DNA from: an uncultured Nitrosopumilales archaeon
GTDB taxonomy: Archaea > Thermoproteota > Nitrososphaeria > Nitrososphaerales > Gagatemarchaeaceae
DNA length: 30,017 nt
Assembly: GCA_964486265.1 (NCBI GenBank)
Contig: CAZAMW010000002.1
Span: 1 to 30,017 of the forward strand
Reading direction: 5' to 3'
The notes beneath the pieces were generated by a model that worked only from the letters and a program-made list of their open reading frames with translations, ran no database searches and was not told where the DNA came from. The position numbers and the translations under genes were made by a program. Shown in pieces: positions 29,544 through 29,678 of this stretch (its first letter is position 1; each line of letters begins with the position of its first letter).

Positions 29544-29678
29544 TGCCGGGGGCGGGATTCTCGTTCTCCTTACTTTCGAGCCCGCGACCTCCGGATATCG
29601 CATCCGAGCTTGGGATTATGAGTTTCGCCCACTTAAGGGTCGTGCCCGGCGCAATAAGCCAAGCTATGCTACCCCGGC
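29544..29678 (-). tRNA. Elongator tRNA-Met(CAT) with three introns: 30/31 (29624-29645, 22 nt), 37/38 (29597-29616, 20 nt), 59/60 (29558-29574, 17 nt)
   Basis: GCCGGGG/CCCCGGC-A acceptor. After removing the three inserts: CCGGA-CTCATAA-TCCGG and GCGGG-CTCGAAT-CCCGC (76 nt). Each insert has BHB/BHL geometry. TTTAAAAG promoter about 30 nt upstream. Confidence 0.88.

Follow-up and report, generated by a model that had tools for sequence, protein, structure and literature searches.

A tRNA-Met(CAU) gene with three BHB introns in a Gagatemarchaeum-like archaeon and its two- to four-intron relatives

A 135-nt gene on the minus strand of the 30,017-nt stretch of DNA analysed here (the window) is very probably a functional elongator tRNA-Met(CAU) gene of a Gagatemarchaeum-like archaeon, whose precursor would be transcribed from a TATA promoter, relieved of three BHB introns and rejoined from four exons. 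The cloverleaf formed by the exons, together with their conservation in orthologs, puts the three-intron structure beyond chance. For its lineage, in which the tRNA-Met genes of relatives are interrupted by two to four introns, this is a well-supported but fairly ordinary gene, and it points to no new mechanism.

The host is a Nitrososphaerota archaeon of group I.1c type, outside Thermoproteales; its assembly (60% G+C, 309 contigs) is 70% complete. An identical tRNA-Met gene is present in JAFMAD010000002.1, and the gene sequence common to several genomes of the same genus is also found in Candidatus Gagatemarchaeum stordalenia. The matching records are Nitrososphaerota/Thaumarchaeota MAGs from soil, peat, groundwater and mine drainage, and the sequencing runs that contain the window DNA are mine-drainage and soil metagenomes.

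The gene, its splice motifs and its spliced product

The earlier note on this DNA had proposed, from the letters and their open reading frames, that the gene collapses to a 76-nt tRNA-Met by loss of introns at positions 30/31, 37/38 and 59/60. We reproduced this structure, and the orthologs described below back it. Its parts are as follows, in window coordinates.

29544..29678, minus strand: whole pre-tRNA-Met(CAU) gene, 135 nt (orthologs give a further basis)
29706..29712, minus strand: TATA-like box TTTAAAA, −34 to −28 relative to the first tRNA base
29646..29678, minus strand: exon 1, gene 1–33, tRNA positions 1–30 (acceptor 5′ strand, D arm, G26, C27–G30)
29624..29645, minus strand: intron 1, gene 34–55, 22 nt, position 30/31
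29617..29623, minus strand: exon 2, gene 56–62, a 7-nt micro-exon (A31-CUCAUA), positions 31–37 with the anticodon CAU
29597..29616, minus strand: intron 2, gene 63–82, 20 nt, canonical position 37/38
29575..29596, minus strand: exon 3, gene 83–104, positions 38–59 (A38, anticodon stem 3′ strand, variable loop AGGUC, T stem 5′ strand, T-loop CUCGAA)
29558..29574, minus strand: intron 3, gene 105–121, 17 nt, T-loop position 59/60
29544..29557, minus strand: exon 4, gene 122–135, positions 60–73 (U60, T stem 3′ strand, acceptor 3′ strand, discriminator A73)

Removal of the three introns leaves a 76-nt product that ViennaRNA folds into a perfect cloverleaf (−34.1 kcal/mol) and that ARAGORN calls tRNA-Met(CAT); the perfect cloverleaf arises only once all three have been removed. 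CCA is not encoded in the gene (29544..29678). The spliced tRNA has G1:C72, A73, U8, A14, G18G19, G15:C48, U33, A37, G53, U55, C56, A58 and C61, with the acceptor stem GCCGGGG, the anticodon stem CCGGA/UCCGG around the loop CUCAUAA, and the T arm GCGGG-CUCGAAU-CCCGC. Its sole atypical base is C54, where U is usual. This C54, in the T-loop CUCGAAU (window 29575–29580), is conserved in Gagatemarchaeaceae-type orthologs, those free of a T-loop intron included, whereas homologs of the AOA type have U54. From its position the TATA-like box is presumably the promoter; most of the 43 orthologous loci have an A/T-rich, TATA-like box at a similar distance (∼30 nt) before the gene.

The suspicion that standard pipelines might miss the gene proved justified: ARAGORN makes no call at the locus, and the Rfam tRNA model, run on a 718-nt excerpt, gives none at the gathering threshold or at E ≤ 10.

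We described the introns by a BHB geometry of a 4-bp central helix and two 3-nt bulges, cut after the second bulge base, which we validated on the neighbouring tRNA-Thr(GGU) with its canonical 16-nt 37/38 intron (central helix 4/4, outer helix 5 bp). Every helix and bulge that the earlier note had named is present. With a caret at the cut, the 30/31 motif reads g CGCC GG^G cac ... gtg GGCG AA^A; it is of type HBh′, with a 4/4 central helix and a 3-bp inner helix. Its central helix CGCC/GGCG takes the exon bases C25–C28, and its bulge takes G29 and G30. The 37/38 motif, a CTCA TA^A tcc ... gga TGCG AT^A, has three of four central pairs, with a U33·C mismatch, and an inner helix of 3 bp, and turns hBHBh′-like after excision of intron 1, when the anticodon stem becomes its outer helix. 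The second central pair of this motif is mismatched in 31 of 33 orthologs, and the inner helix is 2–3 bp. The 59/60 motif, gcggg CTCG AA^A ... CGAG AA^T cccgc, is of type hBH: central helix 4/4, the 5-bp T stem as outer helix, and no inner helix.

Four of the six tRNA genes in the window are interrupted (Leu-CAA, Thr-UGU, Thr-GGU and Met). tRNA-Leu(CAA), at 6652–6773 on the plus strand, shares the layout of its anticodon arm with the Met gene, its introns being 13 nt at 30/31 and 24 nt at 37/38; ARAGORN reads the unspliced gene wrongly, as Thr(AGT), and the spliced 85-nt product as Leu(CAA). tRNA-Thr(UGU), at 25955–26055 on the minus strand, is interrupted in the D-loop by an intron of 26 nt, with a 4/4 central and an 8-bp inner helix; spliced, it is a normal 75-nt tRNA-Thr, and from the raw gene ARAGORN and Rfam give a truncated gene only. 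A tRNA-Leu(CAG) gene runs off the end of the window, its 5′ part lying at 29965–30017 on the plus strand. The order Met(−)/Thr-GGU(+)/Leu-CAG(+) is kept in the closed 2.25-Mb genome of a relative of the same genus (G006, 1626358–1627355).

Elongator, initiator or Ile2

The anticodon CAU is common to tRNA-Met, initiator tRNA-Met and tRNA-Ile2. The hallmarks of an initiator, A1:U72 and three G:C pairs closing the anticodon stem, are absent from the gene, which has G1:C72 and CCGGA/UCCGG. The initiator is a separate gene, both in the host's own genome (contig C19) and in G006 (at 1365894). The own-genome copy, on the minus strand at positions 11916–12034 of the reverse complement of C19, has A1:U72 and GGG:CCC closing the anticodon stem; it too is interrupted, by two introns (38/39, and a 29-nt one in the T-loop at 59/60).

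Our screen found exactly three CAU tRNAs in G006: the initiator type, one with a GGGCCCG acceptor, and the ortholog of the window gene. The second (C1:917426–917547, minus strand; acceptor GGGCCCG/CGGGCCC) apparently has three introns, in the D-loop, at 26/27 or 30/31, and at 37/38. It shares the D stem (GCTC/GAGC) and the D-loop intron site with tRNA-Ile(GAU), whose acceptor begins GGGCCGG, and we read it as Ile2. The window gene would then be the elongator tRNA-Met by elimination, because its ortholog is the sole CAU tRNA in the closed genome that is neither initiator nor Ile-like, which makes the isotype proposed in the earlier note the probable one.

The main competing assignment is that the gene itself encodes tRNA-Ile2(CAU), in which TiaS would modify C34 to agmatidine and thereby let the tRNA read AUA. 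ARAGORN cannot separate the three CAU isotypes, and in the own genome, 70% complete, an Ile or Ile2 gene was not found, which leaves some room for this. We nevertheless judge it improbable, as a different CAU tRNA in G006 is Ile-like, leaving the window-gene ortholog as the only candidate there for an elongator Met, and the acceptor stem GCCGGGG differs from that of tRNA-Ile. ARAGORN also reported a second 'tRNA-Met(cat) with intron' in the own genome (C197:2743–2849, plus strand), which is really a tRNA-Asn(GUU) with a D-loop intron of ∼31–33 nt.

Comparison with orthologs

A BHB motif taken alone is weak evidence for an intron. Relaxed BHB-like motifs number 83 within the 135-nt gene. A screen that removed BHB introns and passed the products to ARAGORN gave 32 alternative 'solutions' at the tRNA-Met locus and, for the Ile2-like gene, 888 spurious ones with three introns; it also found nine false 'tRNAs', all 184–264 nt long, in a simulated 1.7-Mb genome matched for size and dinucleotide content; ARAGORN accepted 706 of 1120 wrong splice variants. 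Such a screen is too permissive to serve as proof and was used for listing candidates only. Because BHB-like motifs are so frequent by chance, the case for the tRNA-Met introns rests on comparison with relatives.

A BLAST search of 40 related genomes and a pattern scan of 185,579 species genomes yielded, after parsing, 43 distinct orthologous gene sequences, all of which collapse to the same 75–76-nt tRNA. Their intron sets are:

30/31 + 37/38 + 59/60: 21 genes
30/31 + 37/38 (or 38/39) + 45/46: 9 genes
all four (30/31, 37/38, 45/46, 59/60): 8 genes
30/31 + 37/38 only: 5 genes

Within the phylum, exons are 92–100% identical to those of the window gene, and introns are 47–95% identical and differ in length through indels. 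In a 27-sequence alignment 27 of the 33 positions of exon 1 are invariant, and exon 2 does not vary among any of the orthologs.

The helices change on both sides. The inner helix of intron 1 occurs as cac/gtg, cacg/cgtg, tacgc/gcgtg, gcta/tagc, ctcgc/gcgag and gagat/gtctc, always paired, and the central helix at 59/60 switches from CUCG/CGAG to CUCA/UGAG, a double change of G57:C to A:U in three orthologs. In the 27-sequence MAFFT alignment 93.1% of helix cells are paired, compared with 32–52% when the partners are slid along; both-side changes occur in seven pairs against 1.2 in shuffles, and 0 of 500 shuffles reach seven.

Relatives that lack an intron also mark where it should be cut. Orthologs free of the 59/60 intron (L012, L018, L033, L050, L078, L081 and others) read GCGGGCTCGAATCCCGC, the exact predicted junction, and AOA-type homologs (L021–L023) are without the 37/38 intron at the predicted junction. 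No relative without the 30/31 intron was found among the orthologs and homologs examined, so this junction rests on BHB geometry and on the A31:U39 pair.

The same comparison bears on whether the locus could be a decaying pseudogene riddled with insertions, another intact tRNA-Met doing the work. In keeping with such decay, spliced RNA has not been seen, the central helix at 37/38 is imperfect, and one relative (G023, locus L020) has a 78-nt remnant without the anticodon arm. The exons are nearly invariant while the introns evolve, compensatory changes keep the helices, and a promoter-like A/T-rich box lies upstream of most orthologous loci. Moreover, neither ARAGORN nor Rfam nor a screen for acceptor, T arm and BHB motifs turned up a second elongator-type CAU tRNA in G006 or the own genome, and we consider decay most improbable.

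The L020 remnant itself (1457–1534, minus strand) joins the 5′ part of tRNA-Met, from 1 to ∼28, to a 3′ part with the 59/60-intron T-loop and the acceptor; the anticodon arm and the T stem 5′ strand are missing. Either a deletion or a faulty assembly could have produced it. A pattern search of G023, an 87%-complete genome, gave no match to a separate, trans-encoded middle piece.

A parse with fewer introns, for which the earlier note had left room, can be set aside with near certainty: a single 42-nt intron (gene 41–82) plus the T-loop intron does have a BHB-like motif with outer helix CCGGG/TCCGG (ccggg CACG AC^C ... TGCG AT^A tccgg; central 3/4, outer 5 bp), but it leaves a loop, CACGACA, with A33 and C37 in place of the universal U33 and purine 37, would read Ser(CGA) in a tRNA without the long variable arm, and is not conserved, L010-type orthologs having CCGGC, which breaks the 31:39 pair, whereas the three-intron parse gives the same mature tRNA from all 43 orthologs.

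The four-intron genes, 148–153 nt long (L010, L011, L013, L016, L017, L019, L047 and L090; for example L010:1499–1650, minus strand), belong to sister species of the same genus and to relatives. Their 45/46 motif, CCGG AG^A ggata..tatcc CCGA AG^G, uses the anticodon-stem bases 40–43 for its central helix, and covariation is seen in it.

In other archaeal phyla, too, tRNA-Met genes have introns at 30/31 and 37/38 with a CGCC/GGCG central helix, and some also at 59/60. Loci with both anticodon-arm introns are found in Thermoproteota B15_G15 (L037, L094), Bathyarchaeota (L057, L082), Thermofilaceae (L080) and Kor4 (L055), and in Asgard archaea (L056, L084, L086, L087 and L062). This cross-phylum set is biased by the search pattern, and the shared sites could be an old inheritance or a preferred target at which introns were inserted more than once.

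Processing, order of excision and known systems

The earlier note had invoked an endonuclease of relaxed specificity and suggested typing the EndA of the genome. Contig C277 encodes a 185-aa EndA α with N and C domains (PF02778 and PF01974) that aligns end to end with the catalytic α of A. pernix (PDB 3P1Z_B, 1.3e-41), the ..VY..GPGIDHAPY.. and ..RK.. segments included; the next matches are the α subunits of S. tokodaii and P. aerophilum. A β-like EndA gene on contig C51, cut by the contig end, matches PF01974 at 31 bits, and its best PDB matches, weak ones, are A. pernix β chains (E 0.29). There are exactly two EndA genes in each of G006, G008 and G024, relatives with, one each, a two-, three- and four-intron gene, and an RtcB ligase is encoded (495 bits). 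An α closest to those of the Aeropyrum, Sulfolobus and Pyrobaculum heterotetramers, together with a separate β-like gene, supports a splicing endonuclease of the heterotetramer type (α2β2), as judged from the two genes, and with it the expectation of relaxed specificity. Only (αβ)2 and ε2 enzymes cut non-canonical introns, and the Thaumarchaeota type is α2β2 (PMC5829648, PMC4090602).

We propose that a 135-nt precursor would be transcribed from the TATA-box promoter, that the α2β2 endonuclease would excise the three BHB introns, and that RtcB would join the four exons before CCA is added, to give a tRNA presumably charged with methionine. The 59/60 motif (T stem, CUCG/CGAG and a 3-nt bulge) and the 30/31 motif (CGCC/GGCG and the inner hairpin) would be self-sufficient substrates. 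The 37/38 motif, with its mismatched central helix and 3-bp inner helix, appears weak alone; it would gain the anticodon stem as outer helix only once the 30/31 motif frees C27–C28, and is probably cut last. The likely order is thus 30/31 and 59/60 first and 37/38 last. Nested introns that need sequential removal have been described (PMC8450103).

According to the earlier note, the 30/31 intron must be removed before the 37/38 BHB can form. This holds for the full hBHBh′ form, because the 30/31 motif occupies C27–C28, G29 and G30, so that a 37/38 motif with the anticodon stem needs intron 1 to be gone. The two motifs are compatible, however, when 37/38 takes a relaxed HBh′ form, and for this form 'must' is too strong. 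We infer the order of splicing rather than read it from the data, because this relaxed form is possible, folding predicts neither of the two motifs, and the RNA seen is unspliced only. In nearest-neighbour folding with ViennaRNA the 59/60 motif has a pairing probability of ∼0.9 in every folding context, and the 30/31 and 37/38 motifs have one of ∼0 in the precursor. RNAalifold recovered de novo the acceptor stem, the T stem with the 59/60 central helix and its 3-nt bulge, and the inner helix of intron 1; the 37/38 motif and the 30/31 central helix were not recovered, so that of the BHB motifs it found 59/60 alone.

The precursor fold is dominated by a 13-bp helix between gene positions 23–35 and 70–83 (window 29644–29656 with 29596–29609). 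It pairs the 5′ region of the D and anticodon stems with intron 2 in its 3′ half, in competition with the 30/31 and the 37/38 BHB alike. By eye it does not look conserved in L010-type orthologs, and we treated it as incidental.

Four metatranscriptome runs (peat and soil) contained unspliced contigs of relatives and no splice joints, and assembled contigs rarely hold a 76-nt modified tRNA. The unspliced contigs may be precursor RNA or DNA carry-over.

A broader reading, which we put forward tentatively, is that the tRNA-Met genes of Gagatemarchaeaceae form a two-, three- and four-intron series in which the helices of the flanking introns capture both strands of the anticodon stem and so impose an obligatory, hierarchical splicing, while introns of the T-loop and variable loop have been gained or lost recently within one genus. 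The 30/31 motif would take C25–C28 and, in sister species, the 45/46 motif C40–G43, so that the outer helix at 37/38 could form only after both were excised.

T-loop introns are routine in this lineage and always lie at 59/60: six tRNA genes carry one in G006 (Thr-CGU, Ala-GGC, Asp-GUC, Met, Arg-UCG and a gene that is probably Gly-UCC), as do at least four in the own genome. In MAGs of group I.1c-type Nitrososphaerota an essential tRNA goes unreported by common detectors (ARAGORN, the Rfam tRNA model), and tRNA counts come out too low where they serve to judge genome quality. With this gene the range of three-intron tRNA genes, and in sister species that of four-intron ones, reaches mesophilic archaea of soil and peat. 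The presence or absence of 59/60 and 45/46 introns among the species of one genus offers a convenient system for the gain and loss of archaeal tRNA introns, and the same series suits asking whether nested BHB motifs enforce an order of splicing. We believe that the most interesting extension lies outside the window, in the four-intron orthologs of sister species and the two-, three- and four-intron series within one family.

Archaeal tRNA genes have been described with 'up to three' introns, Crenarchaeota and Thaumarchaeota being named as carriers of multiple non-canonical introns (PMC8450103, PMC3293823). The Thaumarchaeota genomes analysed held 107 non-canonical introns, of a kind that older tools miss (PMC8450103). 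In Asgard archaea one tRNA gene has up to five (2026 preprint, 10.64898/2026.10.13.758758), so that the four introns in sister species exceed the former figure and fall below the latter.

Among known systems, the elongator tRNA-Met of nucleomorphs and algae (PMC4090602) likewise has three introns at non-canonical sites; these are eukaryotic nuclear or nucleomorph genes with another endonuclease, and the resemblance is in outcome only. The Asgard census is nearer, with a mean of 2.2 intervening sequences per gene, a maximum of five, BHB-compatible sites and genes missed by annotators, and Asgard tRNA-Met (L056, L084, L062, L087) has introns at 30/31 and 37/38 as the window gene does; it concerns another phylum, however, and mostly D-arm misses. 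The Thaumarchaeota introns behind the clade-specific BHB model of tRNAscan-SE 2.0 (PMC8450103) come from the same phylum as the window gene. The earlier note had called three-intron genes best known from Thermoproteales, a setting that has to be widened here to Nitrososphaerota, a phylum with known multiple non-canonical introns (PMC8450103). The likeness to the three-intron tRNA genes of Pyrobaculum, Thermofilum and Caldivirga (Sugahara et al., 2007; 2008), as relayed in PMC8450103 and PMC3293823, is close: BHB introns at canonical and non-canonical sites, the T arm included, relaxed hBH and HBh′ motifs, an α2β2 endonuclease, and introns packed so tightly that one has to go before the motif of the next can form. 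Those archaea are hyperthermophilic, whereas the host here is a mesophilic Nitrososphaerota archaeon of acidic soil, peat and mine drainage, and the close relatives of the window gene, unlike the Thermoproteales genes, vary between two, three and four introns.
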